A DNA stretch of 64,000 nucleotides from Candidatus Heimdallarchaeota archaeon (lineage in GTDB: Archaea; Asgardarchaeota; Heimdallarchaeia; Hodarchaeales; Hodarchaeaceae): positions 461,508 through 525,507 of the forward strand of contig RDOB01000004.1 of assembly GCA_011364965.1 (NCBI GenBank), in the 5' to 3' direction. Every line of letters starts with the position of its first letter. Positions within the stretch are counted from its first letter, which is position 1. A program made the translations under genes and the position numbers. Below, piece after piece: positions 2,311 to 63,517 of this stretch. The notes beneath the pieces are model-generated. The model made no database searches, was not told the origin of the DNA, and worked only from the letters and a program-made list of their open reading frames with translations.

Positions 2311-2411
2311 CAACAAACGTATAGACATCAGATCCAATTTGTATGAACATCTTTCCTGCTGCTTTTATTGCTCTCTATCGAGGGAAGTTGGTAAAAAACT
2401 CACTTTCCACA
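2311..2411 (-). repeat. 23S-3'-end/trailer repeat copy (degenerate, lacks the rRNA tip)
   Basis: caacaaacgtatagacatcagatc-caatttgtatgaacatctttcctgctgctttt...gaggga...actcactttccac. Confidence 0.8.
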
Positions 2412-2516
2412 TGCGTCTGCAAATAGTAGTTATTCTGTGAACAGGTTTTAGAGTATTTCTATACTTCCACAAGGGTGGTGGCAGATATACTTAATATAAC
2501 TTTGTAATTTCTATAA

Positions 2517-3314
2517 TTATGCTTTTGGGATGAGAGGATGTCCACAGCTAGAGCAATATTGGACAAGCGTGAGGTTTGAAGCAGAACAATCCGAACAGAA
2601 CGTAGCATATTGCTGCAACGGAGCATTCCCAATGATCTTCCCATCCCGCATTTCAAGAGCAATATCTCCTATTCTTGCTACGACAGGATTATGAGTGACT
2701 AAAAGGATTGTCTTACCAAATTCGATTTTTAGCTGCTTAAATAAATCAATAATTATCTGTGTATTTTCCGAATCTAGCTCCCCTGTAGGTTCATCAGCCA
2801 AGATGATCTCTGCGTCATTAGCGAGCGCAACTAGAACTGCAATTCGCTGCCGTTCTCCCCCTGAGAGGGCGTGAGGAGCATGGGTAGCGCGGCTATTCAT
2901 ACCCATGCGTGTGAGCAATTCAGTGACTCTTCGTTTTCGTTGTTCTCGAGCCATGCCTAGAATTTTCAAAGGTAACTCAATATTTTCCTCAGCAGTTAAA
3001 ATAGGACTCAAATTCTCGAACTGGAACACAAATCCAACTTTCTCTCGTCGATACTTCGCCAATTCCTTTTCATTCAATCCATTAAGAGAAAGACAACAGC
3101 TAATGATAGTTCCATCTGTCGGAGAATCAATCCCACCAATGAGGTGCAGCAAAGTCGATTTCCCACTCCCAGAGACCCCCATGATAGATACAATTTGGTT
3201 GGACTTAACAGTAAGATTTACTTCGTTTAACGCGTGAATCTCAGAAGTGCCATGCTCAAAGACTTTCTTAAGGTTATGTGTTTGCACAATTGTCTCTTGG
3301 GTCATTTTAATCAC
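2517..3314 (-). CDS. ABC transporter ATP-binding protein (LolD/MacB-like) with C-terminal double Zn ribbon
   Basis: GVSGSGKST, LSGGERQR, ILADEPTG, H-loop; CSDC/CSSC tail. Confidence 0.93.
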   Translation of the reverse strand: MIKMTQETIVQTHNLKKVFEHGTSEIHALNEVNLTVKSNQIVSIMGVSGSGKSTLLHLIGGIDSPTDGTIISCCLSLNGLNEKELAKYRREKVGFVFQFENLSPILTAEENIELPLKILGMAREQRKRRVTELLTRMGMNSRATHAPHALSGGERQRIAVLVALANDAEIILADEPTGELDSENTQIIIDLFKQLKIEFGKTILLVTHNPVVARIGDIALEMRDGKIIGNAPLQQYATFCSDCSASNLTLVQYCSSCGHPLIPKA

Positions 3315-6267
3315 GTAATTGTAAGAAAGAAAGGAAAAATTTCTTCCTAATCAAATATGAGAACGTTATTATAATTGTAAAGTGAGAGAGGATTAATAAG
3401 GTTAAAAACAATAGGATTTTTGGCCAAGGAATTAGAAGTTTCACGGGAATTGGGGGATAAGGAGTAATAAAAAAGTCCATATAGATAGAGGAGGATAAAA
3501 TACCAATCAATATTCCGAAAAAAGCCCCTAATAAGTCAATAGAAAGGAATTCCAAATGAAAAATCCATCTTAGATCTGCAGTTGTCATTCCTCGAGAAAA
3601 ATAAATACCTACTTCATTCTTTCGATCCTTATAGCTTTGGAAGAACAATACTCCCAGACCTGAAGTTACAAGGAGGAAAGTCATAAAAAAGAAAGTATCC
3701 ATAATTGTGATGATACTCCCTGAAGGAGTCATACGAAATTTCTGTTTTAGATCATCAAGAAATTTAATATCTGAATCCCAGAAGGAATTCTGAAATGCTT
3801 CAAAAACAGTCACACGTTCAGCATAACTAGCAGTTGGAGTGATTTTAATGAGCCATGTGATTATTGGTTCTGTTGTAAAAAAATGAGAGGAAAAATTCAC
3901 ATAAGAGAGGAGGAAATCCCTCGAGCAGATCAGTGGGAGAGGAGGGTTGAAGTTCGGTTGGGCAAAGCCAGGAATAAGATAAAAAAAATCCACCACAGTG
4001 AAATTCAGGAGAACTTGGCTCCTAGAAGGGGTGTACAAATCAATCTTAGTGGGGACTATTGTACCCACTTGATTGTCTGCATATTCTCCCTCTCCAAGTT
4101 CCCAGTGTTTAAAGCTAATTGGGGCTAAAGCAGAGGAGTTATGAATGCTGAGTTTCAAGAAAGCCTCTCTTGAAAGACTATCGGGCATAAAATTCTCTTC
4201 AAAATATGTAACTGCCGTAAATGACTCAGGATCAATTGCCAGTATACCACTAGGAAGAATAGAGGCATAAATAGTGCTATTCAAGGGAATATAGATGGAT
4301 GCGCTAATCCAGATCATCTGAGTGACACTCTCAACATAGGAAGACAGATTCAAGAGGTCCTCTGCAGAATAACTCCACAGCTTTCCAAGGTCTCCTGAAA
4401 TACTGATATCTGCCCCTATATCGCGCTTAATTTCACGCAAGGACACACTATATGCTGATTGAGAAAGAATTAACGGGGTGATAGCCATAGAAACAGCCAA
4501 CGCTGTGAGAAAGGCAATATTAGAGAAACGACTACCTCTTCTCAGATAATTCATAGAAACAATACTCCTCAAGCTAGTTTTCACCCCTTTACCCATGAGA
4601 GAGAGATATCGAACGATGAGATCTCTTCGGCCCGTTAAAAGTCGGACGAAAAACAATGAAAAAACTAGAGGGAGAAATGGCAAGAGAGGAGACACAAGTT
4701 TATCAAAAAGTACCGCTAAATCCTGAATGAAGGTAATTGAATCGAATATGTCGAGAATTTCTCTCGCTATCCATAAAGAGAAGAGAATAAGAGTAAAGTA
4801 AAGAATTCGCCTTAAATCTTTTTTTGTGGCAGAAATCCACGATTCAGAAGAATTCATGGGTTTGTGAAGGAGACTGATAGGAACTTTTGCATTGATATTT
4901 CTAGAGGCAAAGAGATTCAGAATATTTCCAAGAATAACTCCTGTTAGCAAGGTTTCCCAGATTAAGGAATCACCTTCAGAAATCAATGGAGTTAACCAAT
5001 CATTGAGAGTCTGTTGATCGGGGATGATGGAATACAAAACAATTATAATAATGAAGGAGAGCACAAGTGAAATCAACGCTGCAGCTAATCCAATTAATGA
5101 CCCCTCTACTACTAGCCAAGATCTAATTTGCATTTTAGAAATACCACGAAATACCCAGATGCCAATGAAGCGTTTATTATTCTCAAATCGGAGAACCTGA
5201 CTGGCAAGCGCTATTAACAAAGCGAAAAGAATAATCGGAAGCATGAGTAAGGTTAATGAATTATGAAGTTGAACTAAATCTTCTGTGAGAAGAGTTAATT
5301 CCTCTAAAAGGGGATTTTGGATAGAAAAAGTGACATCAGTTGGGAGAGCTGCTTCCAAAAAAGCACTAAGGTCTGCTTCAAGGGCTTTCAACAGCCTAGG
5401 TTCTCGGAACCTGTTGAATGACTCAATAATAGCTTCCCTCCTTAAAAATATTGAAAATCCAACATCTTGAAACAGTATATCGCGATTCCCACCCCCAAGC
5501 TTCTCAGAGAGATCAGAATAGGTATCCATATTGACAATTAAGAGTGTCTGGATAGAATTTTGCCTTGAAGTGGCTGGACATAGTAAATCTTTCGCAATAT
5601 TACTCTCACTTGAGAAAGAAAATATTTCAGTTACACGAAGGGGAGAAGAGAGGTTGGAAATAAAGTCAAATTCAATAGATCCATTATACTCGAAGTAATG
5701 GATGTAGAACGTGTCATTGATGGAAACCTGCAGTTTTCTAGCCAGAAAAGAAGAAAGATAAACCTCATTTAAATTCAATGACGCGTTACCAAGTGCGAAG
5801 GGGTGAATACTCGACGAATCAACGAATGAACGAAAGTTTTCTTTATGGATACCCATTCCATATTCGTCGAAAATAGCAAAATTCGCATAGAGACACGAGG
5901 CGTTTTTTGCTAAAGCAAATTGGGAAACCTTTTCATCCTCTCCAAAATAAATAGGTCTGAACCCTCGCTTGACAAAAGTCCGCTCAATAAGCAGAAAATC
6001 CTCTAACTGCTTAGTAAGAGAACGAAGATTGAAATCATCGATAGATTGGGGAAAGTGAAGAGTTAAACGGAGGTCAGAAGCGTCTTGCGATATATCCGCA
6101 ATCATAATAGCATCTTGTAAATATTTTACACCAAAAGTAACACTAAGAGATGCAGTGAGAGTAAAAACTAGCGTAAAAAGAAAAATGAACGAATTCACTC
6201 GCTCTCGACGAAATCGCTGGAAAGCAAGAGGAAATCCCCAAATATATGATGTGAATGAAGCCATCAA
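3307..6267 (-). CDS. FtsX/MacB-type ABC permease
   Basis: 986 aa with two TM clusters carrying R..E.G....RG-like motifs; overlaps the ATPase gene. Confidence 0.85.
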   Translation of the reverse strand: MMASFTSYIWGFPLAFQRFRRERVNSFIFLFTLVFTLTASLSVTFGVKYLQDAIMIADISQDASDLRLTLHFPQSIDDFNLRSLTKQLEDFLLIERTFVKRGFRPIYFGEDEKVSQFALAKNASCLYANFAIFDEYGMGIHKENFRSFVDSSSIHPFALGNASLNLNEVYLSSFLARKLQVSINDTFYIHYFEYNGSIEFDFISNLSSPLRVTEIFSFSSESNIAKDLLCPATSRQNSIQTLLIVNMDTYSDLSEKLGGGNRDILFQDVGFSIFLRREAIIESFNRFREPRLLKALEADLSAFLEAALPTDVTFSIQNPLLEELTLLTEDLVQLHNSLTLLMLPIILFALLIALASQVLRFENNKRFIGIWVFRGISKMQIRSWLVVEGSLIGLAAALISLVLSFIIIIVLYSIIPDQQTLNDWLTPLISEGDSLIWETLLTGVILGNILNLFASRNINAKVPISLLHKPMNSSESWISATKKDLRRILYFTLILFSLWIAREILDIFDSITFIQDLAVLFDKLVSPLLPFLPLVFSLFFVRLLTGRRDLIVRYLSLMGKGVKTSLRSIVSMNYLRRGSRFSNIAFLTALAVSMAITPLILSQSAYSVSLREIKRDIGADISISGDLGKLWSYSAEDLLNLSSYVESVTQMIWISASIYIPLNSTIYASILPSGILAIDPESFTAVTYFEENFMPDSLSREAFLKLSIHNSSALAPISFKHWELGEGEYADNQVGTIVPTKIDLYTPSRSQVLLNFTVVDFFYLIPGFAQPNFNPPLPLICSRDFLLSYVNFSSHFFTTEPIITWLIKITPTASYAERVTVFEAFQNSFWDSDIKFLDDLKQKFRMTPSGSIITIMDTFFFMTFLLVTSGLGVLFFQSYKDRKNEVGIYFSRGMTTADLRWIFHLEFLSIDLLGAFFGILIGILSSSIYMDFFITPYPPIPVKLLIPWPKILLFLTLLILSHFTIIITFSYLIRKKFFLSFLQLRD

Positions 6268-6392
6268 ACGATCACTTGGAAGCTAAAGGTTTAATAAATT
6301 TTGGTACAGTTCTTGAATGAAAAGAATTCTCCAAAAAAAAAGAAACAGGGGATTAAAGCGTTCAAACATCAAACCAAGGACCAAACATTCAA

Positions 6393-6785
6393 CTAGACCC
6401 CATCTGAATCCGGCGGTCGAGGGACATTCTCAAGTTCCCGAATTAACCTCCTCCTTCGCCCTGCCACCGAGCTGTGGTACGCACAATAGAAAAAAAGGCC
6501 CGCATTTATCAAACAGCCAAACCCAATGAGAACAAATCCAAAAAAGAGCAAGGGTAACTTGGGATACTCATATGAAAAATCAATAGCTCCTACGCCAATC
6601 ATAGCTATAGCAACACCGCTCAGAAAGAATAAAAAACTAGGAATCGTTTGCGCCCAGCACTTGTACGAACAGTAGTAACGTTCATCATATGAAATCTTTT
6701 TCCAGAATGTTTGGCGAAATTTACGGTCACAGTAACTGCAGACGAGGAGTTCTTTCTTTTGAGTAGGTGTTTCCAGATTACACAC
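6393..6785 (-). CDS. Small membrane protein with TRASH/MYM-like Zn finger
   Basis: CSYC...YYCSYKC followed by 2 TM helices; paralog of 33779..34117. Confidence 0.65.
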   Translation of the reverse strand: MCNLETPTQKKELLVCSYCDRKFRQTFWKKISYDERYYCSYKCWAQTIPSFLFFLSGVAIAMIGVGAIDFSYEYPKLPLLFFGFVLIGFGCLINAGLFFYCAYHSSVAGRRRRLIRELENVPRPPDSDGV

Positions 6786-7154
6786 CTCCAGATTCCTAGG
6801 ACTGCATTAATCTCAGTCAAACTCAAAAAAACTAAAAGGAATCAGTATTAATCCTTTTCTATTTACACGGAATTTCTTGATCAGTAAGGATTATAGAACA
6901 TTATATATTTATTTCCATATTTTTCTCATCTCTATTTTATATTTTAGATAGTAATTTAAACTCCATGCAAAGTTTTAAGTGATTTAGTTGAATATCTCAA
7001 TTGCAAATTTTTGCGTTATTATAGAATCTTCCGAATACTCACTAAATTAGTATATTAAGTTCATTTCGAAGAACTACACAGAATGTATATTTTATAAGGA
7101 ATGAAATTCCATAAGACTTCTTGACTTGTTAGTAACGTTTCAGGTGGGATAGAT

Positions 7155-7814
7155 TTGCTAAAAAATGAAGAAGGGAATCACCAAGGTTTCTATTTAATTC
7201 AATTCAAGAAAGCACTGTATTGGATGGTAATTGTCTTAAGCGGGTATCTCTTGTATTACCTGAGTTGGGCGTTCTGGATCGCAATTAATGCTATCATTAG
7301 CTCTGGATTTCAATTTGAAGCTATTATCATAAGTCTAGCTTGGATTCCAGCGTTGGCCTTGGGATGGGCTATAGTCTCAGCTGGGATGACCTACCTCTTT
7401 CCAACGACCTTTCGGTTAATTCCGACCCTAGCTTGGATGTTGGGATGGATTGGAGGTGTAGGGGTGTTATACAAAAAAAAAACCACACCTGATGCTAAGC
7501 TTACATTAGGAACACTGCTATTCTTTCTTGGTGCTATTGTAGTGCTTGTCTTTGGAAAAGAGATCTTTAGCTTCTATACTTCGACTCTGATGCTTTTACA
7601 TCTGGATCCTCTTATTTATCTTGGGACAGTGGATAGGATAGGGTTTTACTGGCTTCTACCTCTCTGGCTTCTGAGCTGGAGTTTTTTCTGGTTGAAGCGG
7701 ATTCCCCAAATCAGATTAGAGGATAAAATCCTCTATAACTCTACGCTACTTTGGGTGGTATGGTTTATTATTCTCAACCTCTTTCTGTGGATGTATGCCC
7801 CGATTACTATCTAG
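7155..7814 (+). CDS. Membrane protein, 'MLKNEE' paralog family
   Basis: Clear similarity to 21528..22196 and 54121..54798 (YWLLPLWLLSWSFFWLK). Confidence 0.8.
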   Translation: MLKNEEGNHQGFYLIQFKKALYWMVIVLSGYLLYYLSWAFWIAINAIISSGFQFEAIIISLAWIPALALGWAIVSAGMTYLFPTTFRLIPTLAWMLGWIGGVGVLYKKKTTPDAKLTLGTLLFFLGAIVVLVFGKEIFSFYTSTLMLLHLDPLIYLGTVDRIGFYWLLPLWLLSWSFFWLKRIPQIRLEDKILYNSTLLWVVWFIILNLFLWMYAPITI

Positions 7815-8352
7815 AATTCAAAACAAAATAATTATTTGATGTTGTTGTATGACATTATTTTTTCAGCTTGTTTTTTACGTAAAAGGGAGTCATTCCTATC
7901 GTATTTCTTCTATTCTTAAGTAAAAAGCTTATACATATCTTTTCTGAAGGTCTCAAGATGGTTTTAATTAAATCTAAAACTAAGAGGGTTTAAAATGAAT
8001 AAAGGATTCAATTTTATAAAAACCAATAGTTCATTTACGAAGAAAAAAAACTAATAGTTTATCTAAAGCTAAAACCTTTAGATTAAGCCAGATACTGATC
8101 ATATTTATGAATTTGATCAAGATTTAGATTCCTCTATATGAACTCTTGAATCTTAGATCATATAATGACAGTTACAGAGATTTATTCCTGCTAACTTTGT
8201 TATTTCTACAGATGCAGATTTAGTGACAAATCTCTTCTAAAGAAAATTTGTCCTGAAAGAAGTCCTTAAGAAGTTCTAAAACTCCTTTATGAAAATTCTT
8301 AAAGTTACCTTCATTATCAAAGAAAAAAGTCAGGGACTGCTAGGTAAACCAA

Positions 8353-9738
8353 TTGGATGGCCATAATGAGATGAATAAGAACGTAAATGAACTCAATTCG
8401 AATTCAAAGATTCACAGCTTTTTTGGACACTTTTTTTATTCCCTTGGTGCTATTCCATCAGCTCTTCCTTATAATGTAGTTGGTTCTTATCTTGCTTTCT
8501 TTTATGAAACGAAACAAGGATTGTCAATAGAGCTCTTCGGACTTTTAATGGTACTCTATGGCTTATGGAATGCGATAAATGACCCTCTAATAGGCTTTTT
8601 AATGGATCGGAAAAAAACCCGATATGGCCGCCGAGTTCCGTGGATTGTGACAGGGGGGATACCTTTGGCAGTGGGATTTGCTCTTCTATGGTGGGTACCT
8701 TGGGATAATTCCATTTTTATCTTTCTACATGCTTTAATAATGTTATTTTTATTTGATCTAGGATTTACATTTGCAATTTCAGCTTGGGTTGCTCTATATA
8801 CGGAAATGTATCAAAGTGAGCAGGAAAGAGCTTCGGTTGTGGCTTTAAAAGATACAATCGCGTTTTCATCATCGATGATTGGCGTAATTTTACCACCAAT
8901 AATTGCAGCAAATCTAGGGTGGGAAGCAGTAGGGATAATATTTGGATTAATTACGTTAATTACAATGTATCTGTCTCTCTTAGGGACAAAAGAACGTACT
9001 GAATATCAAATTGATGATCCATTACCACTTCTGACTTCAATCAAGTCTACCTTAAAGAATAAACCCTTTATCTGGATTTCATTGACCTATGCTATGATCG
9101 ATTTTAGCTTTGGTATAACAATGCTCGTTTTTCCCCTCTATGCGCGATTTACCCTCCATTTAGAAGAAGAAATGATAAGTTTGGCCATGGTTGGGATTGT
9201 TATTGGGATTTTTGTAAGTATCCTGTTCTGGCAAAGAATGTATTCCAGAAGTGGACCAAAGGAGGGATTAATGCTCGCAATAGCTATTTTTGCAATTGGA
9301 ATTCTTCCATTTTTCCTTGTTAGTGATATTACTCAGATGATTATTATTTCTTTAATACCTGGATTTGGAGTGGGAGGCATGTTAATGACAGAACCTGCTA
9401 TTTCAGCAGCTATTGATTTTGATGAGATTTCTACAGGAAAAAGACAAGAAGGAGCATATTCAGGCATCTTAACGTTCATTGCGCGTTTGAGTATTGTGTT
9501 AACTAGCATTGTATTAGTTATAGTTCAACTTCTTACAGGATTTAAAACTGGAAGTGAAATTCAACCAGAAACTGCACAGGTCGGATTATCATTGTTAGTC
9601 TCAATAATTCCCAGTGTAGGGGCCTTCATTGGATTAATTTTCATTTTCTTATACCCCTTAAACTTCAAACGTTTTAAAGAGCAGCAAATGAAATTAAAGG
9701 AACTACATGAAAAAAGAAAAGACACTTTAGGATTCTAA
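8353..9738 (+). CDS. MFS sugar transporter (GPH/MelB family)
   Basis: WNAINDPLIG..MDR..TRYGRR.PW and G.RQEG.Y.G motifs; about 12 TM. Confidence 0.9.
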   Translation: MDGHNEMNKNVNELNSNSKIHSFFGHFFYSLGAIPSALPYNVVGSYLAFFYETKQGLSIELFGLLMVLYGLWNAINDPLIGFLMDRKKTRYGRRVPWIVTGGIPLAVGFALLWWVPWDNSIFIFLHALIMLFLFDLGFTFAISAWVALYTEMYQSEQERASVVALKDTIAFSSSMIGVILPPIIAANLGWEAVGIIFGLITLITMYLSLLGTKERTEYQIDDPLPLLTSIKSTLKNKPFIWISLTYAMIDFSFGITMLVFPLYARFTLHLEEEMISLAMVGIVIGIFVSILFWQRMYSRSGPKEGLMLAIAIFAIGILPFFLVSDITQMIIISLIPGFGVGGMLMTEPAISAAIDFDEISTGKRQEGAYSGILTFIARLSIVLTSIVLVIVQLLTGFKTGSEIQPETAQVGLSLLVSIIPSVGAFIGLIFIFLYPLNFKRFKEQQMKLKELHEKRKDTLGF

Positions 9739-9769
9739 TTCTTAATCTCCAAGATATCTAGGTGAAAAA

Positions 9770-12586
9770 ATGAATCTAAAACCTGCAAAAAACGTATTTA
9801 TCGTTCCTCATACTCATTGGGATCGTGAGTGGTATCTTCCATTCCAACAATTTCGGTACAAATTAGTACAATTAGTGGATATTCTATTAACGATCTTGGA
9901 TAGCGAAGAATCCTTTAGATTTACCTTTGATGGTCAAACTAGCATCCTAGAAGATTACTTGGAAATCCGACCTGAAAATGAATCCCGATTATTAGGATAT
10001 ATTAGAGAGAAAAAAATCGCTGTAGGACCATGGTATGTCCTTCCTGATGTTTGGTTAGCGAATCAAGAAAGTTTAATCCGTAACTTGGAGTACAGTCAGG
10101 ATTTAGCTAATAGATATGGTATAAAACAAATGAAAATTGGCTATTTACCTGATACTTTTGGCTTTACTAGAGGAATTCCTCAAATAATTGGAGATTTAAC
10201 CGATTTCAGAGCAATAGTTGTATGGCGAGGGGTTCCACCAGAAATAAAGACTGTTCCCTTTTTATGGCGGAGTAGTCCAGCTTCCGAGAAACCTGTATTC
10301 ACAAATTATCTCCCATTTGGATATGGTAATGCTGCATTACTTCCAGAGAGTACAGAAGAATTAGAAACGGAATTAAAATCTTTGGTAAGTCAATTAGAAC
10401 CTTTCTCACCAATACCAATCTATCTCTTACTACATGGGACGGATCATCAAGTTCCCTCACTTAAGCTAAGTAAGACACTCCCTCAAATAAAAGTACCAAA
10501 CATGGCCTTTCAAATATCACTGCTTGAAGATTATATAGAATCGCTTCTTAAGTTGATTAAAGAAGTAGACTTCCCTCCCCCAGAATATAGTGGGGAATTA
10601 CGATCTGCAGCTCGGGCGCATATTTTAGTAGATACCTATTCAGCGAGAATGTGGATTAAATTATGGAATCAGAAGGTTGAAGACCTTTTAACTCATTATG
10701 CCGAACCTTTATGTTGCTATAGTTGGCTTTACTTCCATAAAGAGTACCCTTCCTCATTTTTAACAGAGGCATGGAAACACCATTTGCAAAATCAAGCACA
10801 TGATTCAATTTGTGGGTGTTCTATTGATCAGACTCATGAAGAAATGAAAGCTCGCTATTCTTGGACTCAAACCATTGCAGAAACCATAATAGAAGATGAG
10901 CTACAATCCCTGGAGGCACAAGCACAGACAACAGATCACGACTCGATTATTGTATATAATCCTACAAATTGCTCTGATCTTCCACTCCTTGTAGAATTTA
11001 CTATTTCTGGGGAAAATAAATATCATAGTGTTATCTCTTCAAAAGGAGAGGTCTATAAGTTACAACCTTTTCAAGATTCAAGGGAAAAACTTTGGGAAAT
11101 GACTGTTGGATCGTTAAAATTACGGGCATTGATGCGACTGCTTCCTGGAAGAAAAATAATGACCTTTTATATCAATGAGGTCTCCATTTTCGATAATAGC
11201 ACCAATCCGAAGATATGTGAAGCTCAGTTGATTGTTGGAGACAAACCACTTGGAGAGTTTGATCTAGATCAAATGAAGAAGAGCATCAATTCCCGAATCC
11301 AAAGTGGCAAATACACGCATTTTCACATGATCGTTACAAAAGAGATGAAGATGAATTATATTGCTCTTATCCCGCTCCAAGCCTGGAGCTTTTCGCAATT
11401 AAAACTTATGGAAGAGGGTAATATTCCTGACAATAGACCCAGAACACAAATTTCTAAGGATTGGGTCATACATCCCTCCTATGAAGTAAGGTTTCAGAAG
11501 GATGGATCATTTAATTTATTTGAAAAAGAATTAAACCTTCAATTCAGAAACTTACACTTCTTTGAGGATTGGGGCGATCGGGGAGATGAATATACCTTTG
11601 GGAGAATCGGCCCCGAATCTGTCAAAATATTCGATATTAAAAGGGAAGTGACACTCAAAGGACCACTTGTGTATGAGATTCAACAATCTATGACTCTCAA
11701 GCTCTTTCAAGAGGTTGATGATGCACGGGAAAAACGAATCGGATCAGTTAAAATTCCGGTGACGACTAAATTTAAATTTTATAGTAATATCAATCGAATA
11801 GATATCCAAACAACATTGATCAATACAGCCAAAGATCATCGCCTTAGAATTTGCTTTCTTTTGCCTTTTAAGACCCAGTACACACATACTTCAACTCATT
11901 TTGGAATTATTAAACGTTTTGCAGGCCCGATTGGAGATGATAGTTATTTAGAAAGGCCCTCAGGGATTCAATCCCAAAAACGATTTATTAGGGTTAATGA
12001 TCCGTCAAGTGAAGCTGCGTTCACTTTAATGAATTGGGGCATTCCAGAAGTAGAATTACGGGATGAATCGGTGTTAGCGATGACATTAATTCGCTCCATC
12101 GGTTGGTTGGCCCAATCAAACTTTCCTGAAAGACCTGAATTAGCTGGACCCGCTATAGCTACCCCGAATGCCCAAGAATTAAATAGAGAATATAGATTTT
12201 TATATAGTATTCGAACTCATACCAAAAAAGAACCACTTTTCAAAACTGCAGACCATTCTGAAGCTTTTTCATTATTACCTAAAGCACTATATTTAGCAAA
12301 GAAAATTTTACCTGCTAAATTAGTTGAACCGATGTTTAAAATCTCTGATGCTAGAATAAGGGTCTCTTCGATGCGAATACGGAACAAGAATATCCTTTTA
12401 ACGTTATTTAATCTTGATGAAGCTGAAGTTACGGTTACAATCGAATATGAAAAGAAGATTACACGCCTAAGTCAAATCCTTATAGATAGCTCATTAAAAG
12501 GAGCCCCCCGTAATGGAGAGCTGATATCGAACTTAACGTTTCACCCTCATGAGATTAAACTACTCTCACTTGGATTGAAAGAATAA
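9770..12586 (+). CDS. Glycoside hydrolase family 38 alpha-mannosidase
   Basis: HTHWDREWY, FDGQ, GPWY, YLPDTFG, HDSICGCSID. Confidence 0.93.
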   Translation: MNLKPAKNVFIVPHTHWDREWYLPFQQFRYKLVQLVDILLTILDSEESFRFTFDGQTSILEDYLEIRPENESRLLGYIREKKIAVGPWYVLPDVWLANQESLIRNLEYSQDLANRYGIKQMKIGYLPDTFGFTRGIPQIIGDLTDFRAIVVWRGVPPEIKTVPFLWRSSPASEKPVFTNYLPFGYGNAALLPESTEELETELKSLVSQLEPFSPIPIYLLLHGTDHQVPSLKLSKTLPQIKVPNMAFQISLLEDYIESLLKLIKEVDFPPPEYSGELRSAARAHILVDTYSARMWIKLWNQKVEDLLTHYAEPLCCYSWLYFHKEYPSSFLTEAWKHHLQNQAHDSICGCSIDQTHEEMKARYSWTQTIAETIIEDELQSLEAQAQTTDHDSIIVYNPTNCSDLPLLVEFTISGENKYHSVISSKGEVYKLQPFQDSREKLWEMTVGSLKLRALMRLLPGRKIMTFYINEVSIFDNSTNPKICEAQLIVGDKPLGEFDLDQMKKSINSRIQSGKYTHFHMIVTKEMKMNYIALIPLQAWSFSQLKLMEEGNIPDNRPRTQISKDWVIHPSYEVRFQKDGSFNLFEKELNLQFRNLHFFEDWGDRGDEYTFGRIGPESVKIFDIKREVTLKGPLVYEIQQSMTLKLFQEVDDAREKRIGSVKIPVTTKFKFYSNINRIDIQTTLINTAKDHRLRICFLLPFKTQYTHTSTHFGIIKRFAGPIGDDSYLERPSGIQSQKRFIRVNDPSSEAAFTLMNWGIPEVELRDESVLAMTLIRSIGWLAQSNFPERPELAGPAIATPNAQELNREYRFLYSIRTHTKKEPLFKTADHSEAFSLLPKALYLAKKILPAKLVEPMFKISDARIRVSSMRIRNKNILLTLFNLDEAEVTVTIEYEKKITRLSQILIDSSLKGAPRNGELISNLTFHPHEIKLLSLGLKE

Positions 12587-12948
12587 TTGGTTCCAACTAT
12601 AACATGGATTCTCCCAATCACTTCGCACAGAAGGAGAGCTACAGGTGGTGGCAAGCACCGATTTTGGAGGAAAACCTAAGAAAGGATGACACGTTTATTA
12701 TCAAAGGCATACATTCCCTGAACAAACCCCATCTATCCAGGTCTGGGGATTTTTTTCTTTTTATCCAATAAATAAAGGTGAAATTTGTGTACTTATTAGC
12801 TTTTTATATCTAAATCCAAATTAAAAAATAATTTCACTTAATAAAGAAAATTAAACCAATAATTACCTGAAGTAACAAAAAATGAAATGTGCCAATTCGT
12901 GGTTAATAACTAAATAGGATAGATACTCTCAACGTACGGAGGAGATTA

Positions 12949-13815
12949 TTATACATTTAACGCCATATAATATGTATAGAATGCTTGTTTGAGGTCATCG
13001 AGATATTTATCTAGCCATTTTTTCCAGCTTTGCGCCTTTTTTCCTTCTTCATCACATCTAACATAAGCAAGTTGAACTAACTTAAGATCATTCAGACAGA
13101 TGTCTTCCATACTTTCATTATTTCTTACAACTTCAAGAGTAGCTACTTTTACAGAATTTATAAATACCAATTGTTGTTGAATAAACTCCTTGGGATTTTT
13201 TATTATCGGTCCATGACCTGGCACAATCACATCGATATCCATGTTCAAAATGTTCTCAAAAGCAACAATATACTCTTCAGGATTTCCCGTCTTTTTTGAC
13301 ATATTATCAAATGATTTATTCTGATAAAATGTAAGAAATGGAATGCTGAAATTAAAGCGATGAAAGATTAGGTCTCCTGAAAATAAGGTTCTGTCATCGG
13401 GGAAATATGCTCCACTTGATCCGATCGTATGACCACCAAACCAATGAAATTCAACTGTACTAAGACCGTCTTCAATAGTGGTTGATTTTTGAAATGAATT
13501 AATTATAAAATCAGTTGAACTTAGTTTTTTTGGCATATTTTGGATACAATTTTTACTTGCTACAAGTGGGACATCTTTAAAGGCTTGTAATCCATTTCTA
13601 TGATCACTATGAGTATGAGTCAGAAATAGATATTTCACTGGAAGATTAAATGTCTCTTCTAACTGCTTTCTAAACTGCCTGCTCAAGTCTAATGAACTAG
13701 TCGCATCTATTGCTATCACAAAAGTTTGTAATGCTATTCCCCCAAAATTACCAGATCGCTTTATACCCGAGGTACAAGCTATTGTACGAGAAGTAACAGC
13801 TTCTAATTCTATCAT
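12949..13815 (-). CDS. MBL-fold metallo-hydrolase
   Basis: THTHSDH, GHT, FSGD, VPGHG. Confidence 0.9.
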   Translation of the reverse strand: MIELEAVTSRTIACTSGIKRSGNFGGIALQTFVIAIDATSSLDLSRQFRKQLEETFNLPVKYLFLTHTHSDHRNGLQAFKDVPLVASKNCIQNMPKKLSSTDFIINSFQKSTTIEDGLSTVEFHWFGGHTIGSSGAYFPDDRTLFSGDLIFHRFNFSIPFLTFYQNKSFDNMSKKTGNPEEYIVAFENILNMDIDVIVPGHGPIIKNPKEFIQQQLVFINSVKVATLEVVRNNESMEDICLNDLKLVQLAYVRCDEEGKKAQSWKKWLDKYLDDLKQAFYTYYMALNV

Positions 13816-14409
13816 ATGAACACCTGATTATTTTATGTAATATAAAATGAATTTGAAGGATTATTCTATTATAAACTCCTGTACGGGATAATTCTATATT
13901 TTTGATAGCGATATTACGATATTATAATACTTTAAACAAAGTACCTGTAAATTAAGCAAATATAATTAAAGGTATTAGTAGTACAGTATCACTGATTCTT
14001 ACAATATAGTCAATCTAATATTATTATTTAAAAGGATTTCCAAAGAGGTCATTGTTTAGAATTTTAGAGTATTTACATTAGCAAAGATGTTTTTACAAAC
14101 ACGAGAAGAAAAATCAGTTAAATCGAGAAATTTTTTTCAGAATAATTATTTCTTAATTACTATTCAGTTAAAAATAACGCATTTTATAGAGCTTTTGTAA
14201 TTATCACAAAAAAATTTTAAGTAAAAAAACGTGGTAGACAAGACTTGGATCAAATTAATTTACATGGATACAGAAACTGATATTTTCTTCAAAGGTTATA
14301 CTTGAATGGAAGAATAGGAAGGCATATGACCGACTCAGAGGAAGATGAACGAGGATAACTTATACGCACCCAAATTTCACCTAGCTTTTACGAAATCTCT
14401 GAAAATAAG

Positions 14410-14520: not shown

Positions 14521-14596
14521 CTGTGGATTTCGCTGCTTGAGGTTCGTTAGCTAGTCAGAAAAATCGAACTCGCTGTTTGTAGAATTTCTTTTGAAG

Positions 14597-19387: not shown

Positions 19388-19443
19388 CTTAGTCAGTCTA
19401 TTAATTTTCAGGTCCTTTTTTATAATTACAGACTATGACTAAA

Positions 19444-52150: not shown

Positions 52151-52488
52151 TTTCTATCCTCCTAAAAATCATTAATTTTCTACATCATACTTATCTAGTC
52201 AGGTTTTCTTGATTTTCGCATTTTATATTATATTATTATTAGGGCGAAGATGTTGGTATTGGGCACAAATCATGACTTTTCTAACATGCTATAGGCATCA
52301 AATAATAATGAAAATATCTCATTTTTAAAAATAAAATTTGACATTATATGGTTATCTATTTCGGATAAGAAGAGGCAAATGAACAACCTATCACGTTAAG
52401 ATTCGATCTTTTAGGATAATATAAAAGGAAAAAGGTTTGAAATATTTTAGAAAATGATTCCAAGAAAGAAACAGTAATTTTTTTTTCC

Positions 52489-52618
52489 CAACGAACGTAC
52501 AGACATCAGAGTAATAACCAAAACTAGACTAGACCAACCAAGCTGGAACACCGCTTCTACAGCTACCTGATGAGGGACCATCTCAATTTCCAAACAGGCA
52601 ACATTCCCGCGCTGAGGT
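52489..52618 (-). repeat. 23S-3'-end/trailer repeat copy (degenerate tip)
   Basis: caacgaacgtacagacatcagag...ccgcttctacagctacctgatgagggaccatctcaatttcca. Confidence 0.88.
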
Positions 52619-52659
52619 AGAAAACAAAAATTTTTTTTTAAAATCTTGAAGCAATAAAA

Positions 52660-53223: not shown

Positions 53224-53401
53224 AATTTTGATTAGTACACATGGAAAGGATAAACGAAATTCGACTTCTGAAAAAGAATCTACAGCGTACCTGCTGAAGA
53301 TTAGTATCATTGGCGAGAATTCTGATTAAAGAAACAAGGGAGAGAAAATCCAATAGAGATCGTTTACATTCAAAAAACAAAAAATAAGTTGAATATGCGT
53401 C

Positions 53402-53530
53402 CAACGAACGTACAGACATCAGAGCAAGAGCCAAAACAAGAACTAATCTGAAATACCGCTTCTACAGCTACCTGACGAGGGATCATCTCAATTTCCACAC
53501 GGTTAGCCCTCCTGCGGTTAGGGACAGCTA
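53402..53530 (-). repeat. 23S-3'-end/trailer repeat copy contiguous with the 23S fragment
   Basis: caacgaacgtacagacatcagag...ctcaatttccacacggttagccctcctgcggttagggacagcta. Confidence 0.94.
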
Positions 53531-53830
53531 GCTAAGCATGTCGGCCGAAGCCTCCACGCGTACACTACTGTTCTATCAACGAGGTCTTCTACCTCAGCAG
53601 TCGTCTACTCGCACATAGTTGTCGTCGCTGACCCCACTGGCCATTTGGCTACGAGCAGAGTGGATGGCTCTTTTCGAGGGGCGTTTCGCGCTTAGATGCA
53701 TTCAGCGCCTATCGCGTAGCGCGTGGCGGCCGGGCAGTGCCCTTCCGGACAACCCGTAGACTAGAGGCGCCCATGCCCTGTTCCTCTCGTACTAAGAGCA
53801 CGTTCCTCTCAACCATCCGACACGTCCAAC
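53501..53830 (-). rRNA. 23S rRNA 3' fragment (domain VI only, ~330 nt)
   Basis: Minus strand has AGTACGAGAGGAAC (sarcin-ricin loop, 53780-53793), GCTGAATGCATCTAAGC, GTAGAAGAC..GTTGATAG and the H94 pairing GGATGGTT/AGCCATCC; sequence upstream is not rRNA. Confidence 0.93.
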
Positions 53831-57610: not shown

Positions 57611-57688
57611 GGAAAGCAAACCTAAACCTCGACAATTCTAACGAGTCCAGAAGACATAAAGACATACCAAAAAGGAATAAAGAATCCT

Positions 57689-57835
57689 CAACGCACGTAC
57701 AGACATCAAATCACGCGCCAAATTGTATGAATATCTCTCTTGCTGCTTCTATCGCTATCTCTCGAGGGATTTTCCCATAGAACTCAATTTCCCCACTATT
57801 TACTAAATAGTTACCCTCCTGCGGTTTAGGACAGC
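57689..57835 (-). repeat. 23S-3'-end/trailer repeat copy
   Basis: caacgcacgtacagacatcaaatcacgcgcca...ctcaatttcc...ccctcctgcggtttaggacagc. Confidence 0.92.
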
Positions 57836-57919
57836 TGCTATCATATACAAAGAATGTATTAATCCCAGTCAAATTCGAAAGAGAAATAAAAGGAATCAGC
57901 ATAAACACTCTGCTATTTG

Positions 57920-60431: not shown

Positions 60432-63057
60432 CGAATAAAATTAGTCCTATTGATATTAAAAGACGGTTAAAAGGAATGTATATGGGAAAAGGACCAAGAT
60501 AATGATAAGTTGGATTTATGTATATAAGACAAATAGCGGCCAATATTCCACCGATTGAGCTATAAATGAGAGTTAGTAAAAGAAGGCAAAAACCAGTCAT
60601 TTCGAGAGTAAAATACTGAAAAGTCCTTTTTACCCCTAAGATTTGTTCTAGGGAAAGCTCTTTCTGCCTAGAACTCACCCAATAATAAAAAATCGAAATC
60701 AAACTCGCGATAGCAATTATTGCTATACTTAAAAGAAATGAAAAAACCTCTATTGCTATTATATCCAAAGATAGAAGATCCATTTCATCCTGATAGTATG
60801 CTAAATTATACCCCTGAAATTCTCTTACTGAAGATTCAAACAGTTGTTCATCTAGGAGAACTAAAGATCCATCCATCATATCTTCGACATAAGCAAAGGA
60901 AATTCTATCAAGGAACGCTCTGAGATCATTAATATTCATGACTAAATGTGCATTTGTGTACCATTTCTGGAAAGTACGAATTAATGAAAAATTAATTTGT
61001 TCCAAAGGTTGAGTTTCTGCGGTTACATATGTCAATGATAGAATTGAATCAGGTGATAGATTAACCAATGTTTCCTGATAAAAAACTCCATTAGGAACTG
61101 TTTTAAGAGTATTAATTGAACGATTATCTATCTTTTGGAATTGATAAGCAATGTCGAAGTATGTTTCTGGATCAATTCCAAGTATTCTGAAATATCCTTC
61201 TTTGAAATTTACTCTAACACTAAGAATTGGTGTAGATGCAGATATATGAAAAAAGTCCTTCACTTCTTCTGGTATAATAGGTGAGTCTATAAAACCTTCA
61301 GCTCCTGTTCTGATTAAGGCCCAATTTTCCTCATTTTGCATAATAGAATACTGGTATACAATAAGAGTTTGACTATATAGAAATAAAAAAGTTAGAATTT
61401 GTAGTAACCTAATATAGTGCTTCTTTTGGCGAATTAGTATTAAGAATTGATAGATTATCAACCCGTGTCTATGATAAGTAGCTTTGGGGAGCTGCTTAGA
61501 AATCCAAACAACAATTCGTTCTATTAGCAACATAAAACCTGAAAAAATACAAAAAAACCCAATAAAATTGATTATATAGAATGACTCAAACAAAAAATTT
61601 GTTTGAAAAAGATCTGGGAGTAAGTAATGTATACAATATTCTCCAAGAATGGCGAAAATCCCAATACTTACTAGTATAACGTCAAAATAACCAAGATATT
61701 CGTTTCGAAAAGATAAGAAGTCTTGTTGTATGAGAATTCTCTGCTTAAATGTTATTCTAAGCGATCGGAACAGCCCTATCCCTAAACACAGTGCTAAAGA
61801 AAGAAAAGCCACAGAAATTAAAAGACTAGGCGCAATACGGTAGTCATTGAGTGAAAAACTCAGTTGCGTCGATTCAATAAGGAGTTTGAACACCTCAAGG
61901 CTAATAATCCCTAATGAAAGTCCTAAAATTATTGAAAAAACCGAAGTGAAAATGTAATAAACGCTTTTTTGAAGAAGAACTTTGTTAGGATGAACTCCTC
62001 TAAGAACGAGTAATTTATTTTCTTTTTCTTTTGATTTTTCCTGCAATCCCACTAGAAAATCAGAAAATAGGATCGTTCCAGCAAGTACAGGCAATCCAAA
62101 TATTAAAAAAGTAGAAATAAATGCATTATATCCCTCGGTAGCTCTATTCAATGCATTGAGAATATCTAGACTAAAAAATATTGTATGAGTTACGGCAATC
62201 ATCCCTTTAAAATAGAAATCTGTTTGCTGTAATACGGTTTCTATATATATATTGACATTATTAAAGAATGGTTTCAAATTATTATAATTCAATAATGATT
62301 TATTGATCCATAGATGTCGAAAAATGACATAATTCACACGAGGAGGGTTTTGCAAGGAGTTGTACAAAGTGTGGAAAAAATCGACACTAGTAACAAGTAC
62401 TAGTCCCCCTCCATAGGAAGCATGCATGAAAAGATCCATAGGAAGATAAGATGGGAAACCGATTGTATAGTTTATATCCGTAGAAAAATCGAACTCCAAA
62501 ATACTGCTAATAGATAATTCCTTTTTACCCCATGTTTCCGCGTGGAATGGGATTGAAGCGAACACTTGAGTTCTGTCAGCGATTTGATATTCAGTATGAA
62601 GATAGGTATCTTTTCTGTCTCGAATTAATATTACTTCCGAATCATTTTGTGGTAATCTAGCCTGAAGTTCTGTCTTCAATCGATTCAATGTCTGCTGGTC
62701 TAACCCAATTAAGACACCTGGCCAATAATCTGATGAATTTGACCACGTATACGTACCATTAACAGTTATACCCGTATAAATTCCGCGTAATTCATGAGAC
62801 AAGTAGTTTGTTATCTCATCAGTTGGTAAAGATATGTTGTCTTGAATTAAATTATAATTATATGTTGTATTGGAATAATTTCCGCTTTCAATAGTGATTT
62901 GATACCTAATATCAGGATTCAATTCTTGAATGGATTCTAATTGATGCTGGACAAATTGAGGATAAACCCCCAGTACTAGGACATTCAATTGGAAGAGAAT
63001 AATGGTTATTAATGAGAAACCAATAACTACTCCAGATATTCCCTTTATTATTCGCAT
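60355..63057 (-). CDS. FtsX/MacB-type ABC permease
   Basis: Two TM clusters (KE..LL.LRG; RQKELSL..ILG); upstream of two ATPase genes. Confidence 0.82.
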   Translation of the reverse strand: MRIIKGISGVVIGFSLITIILFQLNVLVLGVYPQFVQHQLESIQELNPDIRYQITIESGNYSNTTYNYNLIQDNISLPTDEITNYLSHELRGIYTGITVNGTYTWSNSSDYWPGVLIGLDQQTLNRLKTELQARLPQNDSEVILIRDRKDTYLHTEYQIADRTQVFASIPFHAETWGKKELSISSILEFDFSTDINYTIGFPSYLPMDLFMHASYGGGLVLVTSVDFFHTLYNSLQNPPRVNYVIFRHLWINKSLLNYNNLKPFFNNVNIYIETVLQQTDFYFKGMIAVTHTIFFSLDILNALNRATEGYNAFISTFLIFGLPVLAGTILFSDFLVGLQEKSKEKENKLLVLRGVHPNKVLLQKSVYYIFTSVFSIILGLSLGIISLEVFKLLIESTQLSFSLNDYRIAPSLLISVAFLSLALCLGIGLFRSLRITFKQRILIQQDFLSFRNEYLGYFDVILVSIGIFAILGEYCIHYLLPDLFQTNFLFESFYIINFIGFFCIFSGFMLLIERIVVWISKQLPKATYHRHGLIIYQFLILIRQKKHYIRLLQILTFLFLYSQTLIVYQYSIMQNEENWALIRTGAEGFIDSPIIPEEVKDFFHISASTPILSVRVNFKEGYFRILGIDPETYFDIAYQFQKIDNRSINTLKTVPNGVFYQETLVNLSPDSILSLTYVTAETQPLEQINFSLIRTFQKWYTNAHLVMNINDLRAFLDRISFAYVEDMMDGSLVLLDEQLFESSVREFQGYNLAYYQDEMDLLSLDIIAIEVFSFLLSIAIIAIASLISIFYYWVSSRQKELSLEQILGVKRTFQYFTLEMTGFCLLLLTLIYSSIGGILAAICLIYINPTYHYLGPFPIYIPFNRLLISIGLILFGALLSIPFKLGIYRNQNLYLEIRKM

Positions 63058-63394
63058 CTTTGTTACCCTATTTACAATTGATTATAGTATATATATGTTG
63101 TACTGATTCCTTCATTTGATAGGAGCATGTCTCAAATGTACCTGTTAAAAAGTCATATTTTCCCTCCCACAGAACATTTTTTTAAACACAAAACAGCTGG
63201 TCCTTTAGCTAATATTTCTTGTGAATTAAGGGATGAAGACTTGAAAGAAATCCATCCAATTTATATTATACAAACTCGGTATGATAAATAATTATCCTTC
63301 TAAGGGACCAGGAGAATAAGTTGAATAAACAAATTATACTCGCTAGGAATGGTGTTAAAAATCAATAATAGCAAAGAATACCATCAATACTGCT

Positions 63395-63517
63395 CAACGA
63401 ACGTACAGACCTCAGATCACGCGCCAATTTGTATGAATATCTATCCTGCTGCTTCTATAACTATCTAACTAGGGACCATCTCAATTTCCACACGGTTAGC
63501 CCTCCTGCGGTTAGGAA
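63395..63517 (-). repeat. 23S-3'-end/trailer repeat copy (near consensus)
   Basis: caacgaacgtacagacctcagatcacgcgccaatttgtatg...catctcaatttccacacggttagccctcctgcggttaggaa. Confidence 0.94.

Follow-up and report, generated by a model that had tools for sequence, protein, structure and literature searches.

What has set copies of a ribosomal RNA gene end, all facing one way, between unrelated genes in a member of the Hodarchaeales? An earlier note on the window (the whole 64,000-nt stretch analysed here, which on its right side extends to where contig C12 stops) had described 19 same-direction copies of a repeat matching the 3′ end of 23S rRNA plus its trailer, and attributed them to small integrase-less cassettes inserted serially at the rRNA gene end, building an integron-like array. 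Our analysis revealed a hypervariable island of accessory genes immediately 3′ of the single 23S rRNA gene, split by co-oriented orphan copies of that gene's end, hereafter termed tails.

Using an nhmmer profile built from the 19 original start positions, we recovered all 19 copies in the window, each as a plus-strand match (the tails themselves are listed on the minus strand; the first coordinate of every tail range below is its nhmmer start). The note had left confinement to be checked. The same search returned three further copies upstream of the window on the same contig (C12:440879, 445256 and 460938) and four, on one strand, on the 11-kb contig C8, giving at least 26 tails at one locus and on one strand, and none elsewhere in the 16-contig, 2.97-Mb assembly, which is a metagenome-assembled genome (MAG) of 87 % completeness. 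A 24-nt motif from the right end of the repeat occurred seven times (0.00 expected). The tails at 34438 and 38429 (34431..34600 and 38421..38500) were spanned without mismatch by contigs from the run of an independent study, and the junctions there are therefore not artefacts of this one assembly.

In its short form, the repeat comprises the last ~31–43 nt of 23S rRNA and ~95–125 nt of trailer, and comparisons with rRNA agree with the identity first proposed. Positions 53512–53822 (minus strand) of the window correspond to archaeal LSU positions 2721–2973 of 2987 (Rfam LSU_rRNA_archaea, 222 bits), indicating that the copy at 53402, already taken to display the terminal region of 23S, continues into a ~330-nt 23S 3′ fragment; from 53829 onward, it has 79 % identity to the real 23S of the relative G005. 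In G005, the real 23S is followed by a trailer carrying the blocks of the tail (GTGTGGAAATT.AG, TCGTCAG.TAG and CTGATCTG.TGTCTGTACG), while in G016 a sequence complementary to the distal block of the tail, CGTACAGACATCAGATCG, stands in the 23S leader ~75–90 nt before the gene. These relatives, together with the G008 array described below, show that the tail reaches the base of the pre-23S processing stem and finishes with its 3′ strand; it is the portion of the pre-23S which an insertion near the gene end would need to replace.

The tails fall into two length classes, each with its own 23S-side boundary and both boundaries recurring in several species, a pattern that is new here. The edge of the short class lies in the H101 3′ strand (ACAG..GCTAA); the long class holds ~330 nt of 23S instead of ~31–43 nt, plus the trailer up to the 3′ strand of the processing stem, and starts where TATCTAT meets TGGACGTGTTGG, a boundary common to seven genomes. 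The 23S-side boundaries vary within ~10 nt and are in this sense ragged. The long tail of the window (53393..53829) consists of ~95 nt of trailer (53402–53497) and the last ~330 nt of 23S (to 53829), beginning at TTGGACGTGTCGG, 36 nt 5′ of the sarcin-ricin loop motif. In a long-tail remnant (21051..21240, the right part of a copy initially placed at 21043), internal deletions have spared the right part of its trailer and the terminal ~30 nt of 23S, together with ~20 nt from the 5′ boundary of the 23S fragment (ACACGTCCAA).

Among the remaining copies, 42078..42228 is the best-preserved short tail (nhmmer E value 3e-45), 24403..24566 and 57683..57838 also belong to the short class and 2306..2445 is a diverged member of it (nhmmer E value 5e-31, with alignment). 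Orphan tails also occupy 39434..39586, whose right flank matches the flank beside the C8 copy at 11153 (96 % identity across 116 nt), 44450..44600, 34431..34600, where the 23S homology is ~12 nt longer than in most copies (ACAGCTAAAGCTAA), and 28560..28710, which is homologous in its left flank and left third to the copy at 38421. Three half tails keep only the distal, processing-stem part, i.e. the left half (23403..23480, 38421..38500 and 46947..47021, initially placed at 23411, 38429 and 46954); the tail at 22277..22400 is truncated at both ends and that at 24632..24793 (initially 24639) is degenerate (nhmmer E value 6e-16). The tail at 36775..36925 lacks hairpin 1, those at 49146..49285 and 52481..52625 lack hairpins and have a decayed 23S part, and 63387..63523, the last before the contig end, is likewise without hairpins. 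RNAalifold found no global hairpin in the tails; their secondary structure is limited to two short hairpins, both optional.

The full minus-strand 23S gene predicted to the right of the array is not visible in this genome because contig C12 ends there; however, it is present in two relatives. In G008, 29 co-oriented tails on its contig C8 form an array leading into the real 23S at its end, and in G005 (contig C44), the real 23S and its tail are followed by a 3.7-kb cassette and a second tail 89–94 % identical to the first. As the note had anticipated, cassette content differs between related genomes: the arrays of six species have almost no orthologous cassettes in common, and the close species G002 and G013 share a single cassette (95 % identity), with synteny ending exactly at the 23S-side edge of a tail.

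Cassettes of one to five genes, assigned using Pfam, lie between the tails in both orientations from 21528 to 63057, and array genes occur on both strands throughout. Ras-family GTPases are found in the cassettes at 28776, 39656, 44625, 46082, 47068 and 52660, alongside a TPR protein, a subtilase, a thioesterase, Fic, PadR, a CPT-like kinase, a nucleotidyltransferase and ABC/FtsX proteins. Approximately 12 cassette proteins returned no family match in Pfam, PADLOC or NCBIfam; most of these are multi-pass membrane proteins according to their TM count. The tail-poor stretch at 2517..20733 is the older part of the island and encodes ABC/FtsX, a membrane-protein paralogue, MFS, GH38, MBL, AbiEi/AbiEii, ICMT, GNAT-SCP2 and one TnpB (Pfam). 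Paralogues within the array comprise three membrane-protein copies, two ABC/FtsX sets and eight Ras-like genes. With a search profile trained on array copies, Ras-family GTPase genes were ~sixfold enriched: this 3.3 % of the genome holds 8 of the 37 such genes detected.

Recombinant mosaicism of the tails, seen in two genomes, is also new here. In pairwise-homoplasy tests, the observed value was 0.496 for this genome (0.619±0.023 under permutation) and 0.42 for G008 (0.645±0.024), with 0 of 5000 permutations as low in either case. Where a shared flank reaches the tail edge (three of three pairs), only the flank-side third of the tails is alike, with similarities by thirds of 0.86/0.54/0.39, 0.63/0.76/0.84 and 0.69/0.81/0.84. 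Neighbouring tails resemble each other no more than tails far apart do, and identity does not fall along the array; this lack of likeness between neighbours and the flank-side-only similarity are both new here. Decay rises modestly with distance from the 23S end in this genome (rho 0.55, P=0.008), where tail spacing also grows distally, and shows no significant gradient in G008. On these data, serial insertion at the gene end stays a proposal; mosaic tails, absence of neighbour likeness and only modest decay mean that homologous recombination between tails fits at least as well as ordered site-specific integration. All 26 tails best match tails of their own genome rather than the sampled tails of five other species, leaving no trace of cross-species import, and a search of public contigs for circles or cassette-deletion alleles returned only joints due to cross-mapping tails and gave no instance of exchange between cells.

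The description of the cassettes as integrase-less held up, since neither Pfam searches nor genome scans located a recombinase or reverse transcriptase in or near the array. No recombinase was detected by Pfam among the 60 ORFs of the window and 10 upstream ORFs; PF00589 matches in the genome are confined to contigs C9 and C1, with none on array contigs, and the C1 integrase had no tblastn match in the arrays of six relatives. No integrase or remnant was present in the seven arrays examined (this genome, G008, G002, G013, G003, G001 and G005), and the arrays are not accompanied by an integrase, serine recombinase, reverse transcriptase or transposase. Genome-wide, no serine recombinase or reverse transcriptase was found, nor was an SSV-type integrase found in the genus. 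Close homologues of the only non-Xer tyrosine recombinase of this genome, encoded on C1, were limited to 4 of 21 relatives, and arrays occur in many more; 20 of the 22 genomes in the genus carry a Xer-like recombinase gene. No tail was found on virus or plasmid contigs. As the genome is only 87 % complete, a recombinase gene may sit in its unassembled part.

We favour, with about an even chance of being right, homology-driven recombination from tail to tail, in which the tails are the recombination sites and the host RadA machinery acts without a dedicated integrase. Crossover between two direct tails would release the intervening genes as a circle with one hybrid tail, while unequal exchange would duplicate or delete cassettes. 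Tail-bearing DNA from another cell of the population could enter by a single crossover into any tail, including that of the live gene, and such integration would always leave both the 23S end and the processing stem intact; successive rounds would yield a species-specific, quickly changing stack of small cassettes. In this scheme, the enzyme at work, a circle as intermediate and DNA transfer from cell to cell are inferences, as are the ways in which the first tail duplicates and wholly new genes come in. Several considerations weigh against this homology model. A site-specific enzyme would give two defined, cross-species 23S-side boundaries, which under pure homology must stem from inheritance of a few founder tails; gene conversion following site-specific insertion could likewise make tails mosaic; and the first entry of tail-less genes into the array is not explained by homology alone. 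The best matches of all 26 tails within their own genome, the failure to detect circles or deletion alleles in public contigs and the incomplete assembly, which might hide a recombinase gene, count against it too.

The serial site-specific integration of the earlier note is, to our mind, a possible but rather unlikely origin. Small elements whose att site is the 23S end plus trailer, with a core in the 23S 3′ region, would be inserted by a tyrosine-type or other recombinase acting in trans, be it the Xer-like enzyme of the host, one supplied by a helper element or a member of an unrecognised family. Every insertion would restore the gene and displace the previous tail outward. The two sharp boundaries common to several species, the G002/G013 synteny break exactly at a tail edge and a repeat spanning exactly what restores the 23S end and processing stem are in keeping with this, as are the more decayed and more widely spaced distal tails of this genome and the prevalence of the Xer-like gene. 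However, the seven arrays examined lack an integrase, the C1-type integrase is patchy in the genus and the SSV type absent, the tails are mosaics with crossovers inside them, the decay gradient in G008 is not significant, the boundaries are ragged within ~10 nt and the tail lies on no virus or plasmid contig.

An origin in place without mobility seems improbable. Here, an ancestral duplication of the rRNA tail would have been followed by unequal crossing-over, segmental duplication (particularly of GTPase genes), ordinary insertions and decay, so that the tails would be passive scars within a stretch prone to recombination, downstream of a strongly transcribed gene. That all tails are genome-specific, that paralogous cassettes recur within the array (the membrane-protein, ABC/FtsX and Ras-like sets) and that half and internally deleted tails exist would suit such a history; the same layout with almost wholly different cassette sets among species of one genus, functionally unrelated cassettes tight against tails at 26–29 places and the near-identical G002/G013 cassettes with synteny breaking exactly at a tail edge would not. 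It is very improbable that the copies represent an assembly artefact or a dispersed mobile repeat, whether a MITE or a SINE-like retrocopy derived from the rRNA 3′ end. The copies do share their RNA-sense 3′ end and vary at the 5′ end (long, short or half), as 5′-truncated retrocopies do, yet the genome has no reverse transcriptase, the same layout recurs in independently assembled MAGs of other species and independent contigs bridge junctions. That 26 of 26 copies sit at one locus, all on the same strand, and that the other parts of the 2.97-Mb assembly have none refutes this reading for practical purposes.

Returning to tail-to-tail homologous recombination, the rRNA gene end seems to be a site of gene capture and gene shuffling. 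We tentatively propose that Hodarchaeales possess an integrase-free cassette platform in which copies of the 23S tail serve as portable homology sites. Through these sites, small gene blocks would leave by looping out, be duplicated, pass between members of the population and return to the region behind the rRNA gene, and the platform would perhaps be a nursery for expanding Ras-family GTPases and envelope proteins. Hodarchaeales are among the closest archaeal relatives of eukaryotes, and the Ras-family enrichment of the array may bear on the expansion of small-GTPase families near eukaryote origin. As the arrays end contigs and carry rRNA fragments, they also affect how Asgard MAGs are binned and annotated and how rRNA genes are called in them.

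The ends of stable-RNA genes are well-known places for mobile DNA to land, and at tRNA and tmRNA 3′ ends, integrated elements and islands accrete in tandem, as in archaeal 'gene capture' and the 'additive' flexible genomic islands of marine bacteria. As in those arrays, co-oriented direct repeats of a stable-RNA gene 3′ end bound the inserted DNA, the live gene is intact at one end (seen here in G008 and G005) and repeated events build an array of strain-variable content. The anchor here, however, is the 23S rRNA gene, the repeat is 130–460 nt including a processing-stem trailer rather than the ~15–60 nt of tRNA, the 26–29 cassettes are very small with mosaic tails and no integrase or integrase fragment lies in the arrays. 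With regard to crossover in a short core, boundaries are sharp and shared, yet exchange points lie inside the tails. Small integrase-less modules able to stack in arrays, moved by a housekeeping recombinase of the host, are also known from Xer-dependent systems, namely IMEX elements at dif and the pdif modules of Acinetobacter plasmids with 28-bp XerC/XerD sites; action of a Xer-like protein on the present tails is only a possibility.

The label 'integron-like' applies to the layout only. Integrons reportedly occur in Archaea, as Ghaly and colleagues are said to have described in 2022. The island resembles sedentary chromosomal integrons and CALINs in its long array of one- to three-gene cassettes with co-oriented ~100–150-nt repeats and in its species-variable content, rich in unknown and toxin–antitoxin genes. 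However, there is no IntI next to the array, the repeat is a copy of the host rRNA tail and not an attC with R′′-L′′/L′-R′ symmetry, the array starts at an rRNA gene and not at attI, and its genes point both ways, so that there is no common promoter logic.

A precedent for rRNA genes as homology anchors is bacterial. HVR2 of SAR11, which lies between the only 23S and 5S genes, is likewise a large hypervariable island directly behind 23S, with abundant envelope genes, and the rRNA genes were proposed to act as homologous-recombination anchors letting variants spread (Wilhelm et al. 2007, PMC2217521). It was described as one block exchanged whole between two conserved flanks, with no internal tail repeats or cassettes reported (PMC2217521), whereas the present island is divided into cassettes by tail repeats. 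We found no published description of a 23S-tail cassette array, and the stable-RNA-end cases described, as far as we found, concern tRNA and tmRNA genes with an integrase; here, a single 23S gene is the anchor, pre-rRNA processing signals lie in the repeat and dozens of cassettes are stacked without an integrase. If the tails work as homology sites, they would offer a simple means of assembling and sharing a pool of cassettes without a recombinase, with an outcome comparable to that of integrons.

The window is the terminal 64 kb of the 525-kb contig C12 (C12:461508–525507) in a 2.97-Mb MAG of short-read origin (G000; 16 contigs, 87 % complete, G+C ~35 %), from which the real 23S gene and the proximal end of the array are absent. 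A profile built from the positions of the 19 repeat copies claimed in the earlier note recovered all 19 and detected seven others: three on C12, upstream of the window, and four on C8, a contig of 11 kb. When the whole assembly was searched with this profile, the copies of any one contig shared a strand and none were found in the rest of the assembly, bearing out the proposal that the repeat is confined to one locus and one strand. The right-end 24-mer occurs seven times, against zero expected, and the window edge coincides with the contig end, 480 nt past the last copy. C8 may either extend the array or represent its counterpart in a variant strain. The only public genomes sharing a 20-nt motif of the repeat were Hodarchaeota/Heimdallarchaeota (Asgard) MAGs, an affiliation with which the abundance of Ras-family GTPases agrees. 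That the copies arose as a MITE, by retrocopying or through faulty assembly can in practice be ruled out.

Window 53512–53822 (minus strand) matches positions 2721–2973 of the 2987-position archaeal LSU model (Rfam), confirming that the copy at 53402 is 23S rRNA 3′ terminal sequence. This is the sole LSU sequence in the whole assembly, and no SSU was found in its contigs. We therefore refer to the copies as orphan tails, i.e. spare copies of the 23S 3′ end and trailer, and to the genes between them as cassettes. Contig C44 of the relative G005 bears a genuine 23S gene (model 1019–2987) whose 3′ end and trailer aligned with the 53402 copy at 79 %, contain the conserved blocks of the repeat (GTGTGGAAATT.AG, TCGTCAG.TAG and CTGATCTG.TGTCTGTACG) and place the 23S end at ~window 53497; according to this alignment, a short tail consists of the last ~31–43 nt of 23S and ~95–125 nt of trailer. 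In a second relative, G016, the sequence CGTACAGACATCAGATCG lies in the 23S leader, ~75–90 nt before the gene, and is the complement of the distal block of the tail (17/18 nt; 0.01 chance matches expected). The tail thus stops at the base of the pre-23S leader–trailer helix, the processing stem of archaeal rRNA maturation, an assignment resting on the 17/18-nt complement; leader/tail duplex energies were not distinct from those of shuffles. The tail is thus exactly the piece needed to keep 23S functional after an insertion near the gene end. Conserved columns of the orphan tails compared with those of tails across species gave a rho of 0.15 (p 0.13).

In G016, the 10 kb preceding the 23S gene whose leader carries the tail's complement (C9, locus L023, 60000–72465) contain no 16S. 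In G008, the 5′ part of 23S on contig C9 (locus L065, 1–4000) is preceded by a ~290-nt spacer and a 16S 3′ end, so that either two rRNA gene layouts exist in the genus or one of the two contigs stems from contamination (8 % in G008). G001 contig C57 holds a full 23S whose end is unlike that genome's own orphan tails.

Tails fall into two length classes. The 23S-side ends of most copies lie within ~12 nt of each other (ACAG to GCTAA, in the H101 3′ strand), and apart from the 53402 copy only that at 21043, an internally deleted long copy, retains further 23S remnants. The 53402 copy comprises ~330 nt of 23S beginning with TTGGACGTGTCGG (window 53829), a point 36 nt to the 5′ side of the sarcin-ricin loop motif. 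Long copies of this kind, ten in all, were identified in seven genomes (G000, G001, G002, G003, G008, G012 and G013), all starting at LSU model position 2721; across the nine copies aligned from six genomes (G012 left out), the starts coincide on 23S within ~10 nt. Changes at otherwise invariant rRNA positions mark the long copies as pseudogene pieces. A public contig from sequencing run X19 is ~85–90 % identical to the orphan 23S fragment at window 53534–53829 and runs on past 53829 into genuine 23S (TAGATAAAGTCCGACCTGTCT, plus strand). This contig probably represents the genuine 23S of the G000 organism or of a close relative, from which, as the comparison shows, the orphan fragment has diverged.

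The earlier note had predicted a 23S gene to the right of the array on the minus strand, and such a gene is seen in G008. There, the 54.7-kb contig C8 carries 29 co-oriented tails (mean spacing ~1.8 kb), and closes with 820 nt from the 3′ portion of 23S (model 2545–2987), running off the contig end on the minus strand. On G005 C44, the real 23S and its tail are followed by three genes, a second tail 89–94 % identical to the first and then weaker remnants. Most species of the genus possess an array or more than one tail, these relatives being kin and not independent samples. G010, listed as one contig, is an N-gapped scaffold with tails at three separate places and is therefore of no use for defining array borders. 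Within 20 kb behind 23S, no tail repeat was found in 11 Asgard genomes of other families, except for a 31-nt duplicate in G077, possibly a lone orphan tail; within the sample examined, arrays are thus particular to this genus. In G077 (locus L073, C5:340000–359900), the 31-nt piece of 23S trailer at 302–332 recurs at 2455–2485, 2.15 kb downstream, with 90 % identity.

Cassettes comprise one to five genes, which occur on both strands and closely abut the tails. Pfam families represented include Ras-family GTPases, TPR, subtilase, thioesterase, Fic, PadR, a chloramphenicol-phosphotransferase-like kinase, nucleotidyltransferase, ABC/FtsX, AbiEi/AbiEii, MFS and GH38, among others. About a dozen cassette proteins had no match in Pfam, NCBIfam or PADLOC (PADLOC and NCBIfam returned nothing for 10 proteins lacking an assignment), and most of those unmatched are multi-pass membrane proteins. 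As the earlier note had anticipated, cassette content differs across relatives: a comparison of all array ORFs of G000, G008, G002, G013, G003, G001 and G005 revealed almost no orthologues, the only cross-array matches being paralogous GTPases, ABC ATPases and one AbiEii pair. One cassette is clearly shared, between the close species G002 and G013 (95 % identity over 1.9 kb); similarity falls within the tail to its right and is gone exactly at the 23S-side edge of that tail, indicating that tails are the breakpoints of gain and loss.

Eight of the 37 Ras-family GTPase genes detected genome-wide lie in the array, which makes up 3.3 % of genome length, a rough proportion since the GTPase profile was trained on array copies. 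They are located at window 97–624, 28776–29903, 39656–40189, 44625–45152, 46082–46600, 47068–47568 and 52660–53223 and at C8:10249–10941; the G008 array is likewise rich in these genes. The ORF at 34646–35563 has a P-loop-like motif (KIVCLGQCD). A conserved ~65–95-nt element (28412–28505, 38295–38360, 45165–45230 and 47596–47689) lies immediately upstream of the minus-strand GTPase genes at 44625–45152 and 47068–47568, and its remnants adjoin two tails (28568 and 38429); one type of GTPase cassette may thus have a 5′ leader or an N-terminal extension in common. A multi-pass membrane-protein gene is present three times (219–225 aa, 62–67 % identity), each with a conserved ~300-nt upstream region (6850–7814, 21223–22253 and 53816–54855). 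Two copies stand directly beside long-tail remnants, whereas no tail is left beside the third, at 6850. An AbiEii/AbiEi toxin–antitoxin pair is found in the island's older part (14597–16541, minus strand), with an AbiEii homologue in the G008 array (43 % identity).

Tails within one genome are very diverse, at a mean pairwise identity of ~0.62, and form interleaved variants that either have or lack two short hairpins. The hairpin stems show compensatory changes at two pairs (CG five times and AU four times; UA four times and CG three times), and their cells are paired in 85 % of cases overall vs 50–71 % with partners slid. Pairwise-homoplasy tests, which presuppose a sound alignment of these divergent tails, gave 0.496 vs 0.619 ± 0.023 in G000 and 0.42 vs 0.645 ± 0.024 in G008, with 0/5000 site permutations as low in each; judged from these sequence tests, the tails are recombinant mosaics in both genomes. 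In the three pairs of tails with flank homology up to the tail edge, only the flank-side third is alike (left/middle/right thirds 0.86/0.54/0.39 for the pair sharing a left flank, 0.63/0.76/0.84 and 0.69/0.81/0.84 for those sharing a right flank). On either side, a cassette is thus linked to the portion of the tail nearest to it, which is the trace expected of a crossover inside the tail. Compared with tails sampled from five other species, the best match of each G000 tail (26/26) was another G000 tail. Distal tails in G000 are more decayed (rho 0.55, p 0.008) and spacing widens distally; the decay trend in G008 was not significant. The stretch is present in 20 public runs from six studies, with no RNA run among those listed. 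Logan contigs of four runs aligned to window 34000–53999 were short and mostly ended at tails; four apparent skips and a back-joint were rejected as proof of excision or deletion because other tail sequence lay between their sides, indicating cross-mapping copies.

The cassettes had been described as integrase-less, and indeed no recombinase, transposase (save one TnpB) or reverse transcriptase was found in the window, in the 36 kb preceding it or in the arrays from six relatives. G000 has neither a serine recombinase nor a reverse transcriptase, and no SSV-type integrase was found in the genus. Its two tyrosine recombinases are an Xer-like protein on C9, whose gene is present in 20/22 genomes of the genus, and one at the very start of C1 (locus L027, C1:218–1216), followed by a Ras-like GTPase and housekeeping-looking genes. 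The latter was rejected as the array integrase, as close homologues occur in only 4/21 relatives (54–65 % identity; G002, G019, G017, broken, and G003, a fragment) and none on array contigs. The 222–225-aa protein beside the long tail (54121; paralogues 21528 and 7155) was examined as a possible cryptic recombinase and dismissed, being a multi-pass membrane protein absent beside long tails in other genomes. TnpB (19468–20733, minus strand, 421 aa, OrfB_IS605 and Cas12f1-like TNB) lies within the array, immediately to the left of the truncated 21043 tail, with no TnpA seen near it; as a single copy in the assembly, it was discounted as a general agent. In viral contigs, the proximal tail motif returned 0 hits and the six hits to the distal motif were all unrelated phage coding sequence (43–60 % G+C), leaving no viral contig that carries a tail.

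In its layout, the array corresponds to tandem accretion at the end of a stable-RNA gene. Homologous recombination from tail to tail fits best and has, in our estimation, about an even chance of being correct; it is favoured by the exchange points inside tails, the linkage between a flank and the adjacent tail part, the missing integrase and the lack of order among tails. Such recombination would include single-crossover integration of tail-bearing DNA, unequal exchange and excision of cassettes as circles. The absence of order also bears on CRISPR-like duplication of a resident tail at each insertion, which predicts that neighbours are most alike: they are not (0.62 vs 0.62 in G000, 0.585 vs 0.62 in G008), nor does identity drop with distance along the array, which argues against simple copying of this kind, and we rejected it. 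The boundaries are sharp and recurrent, as would be expected of a site-specific recombinase acting in trans, and the mosaics could have arisen later by gene conversion; we consider this explanation possible, though less likely than tail-to-tail recombination. A purely in-place history of the array is improbable, the turnover of cassettes from species to species making such an origin less likely. We accordingly prefer tail-to-tail exchange as a working reading.

We found no description of rRNA-anchored cassette arrays in the literature, of which our coverage was incomplete. The nearest known systems include the arrays of integrated elements at tRNA and tmRNA genes, from which this locus differs in lacking the integrase of tRNA-type islands, and chromosomal integrons and CALINs. 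The earlier likening to an integron holds for the layout of co-oriented repeats and small cassettes and fails on the defining features, there being no IntI, no attC and a mixed gene orientation. As a homology-anchored island behind the 23S gene, the nearest known counterpart is HVR2 of SAR11 (PMC2217521).
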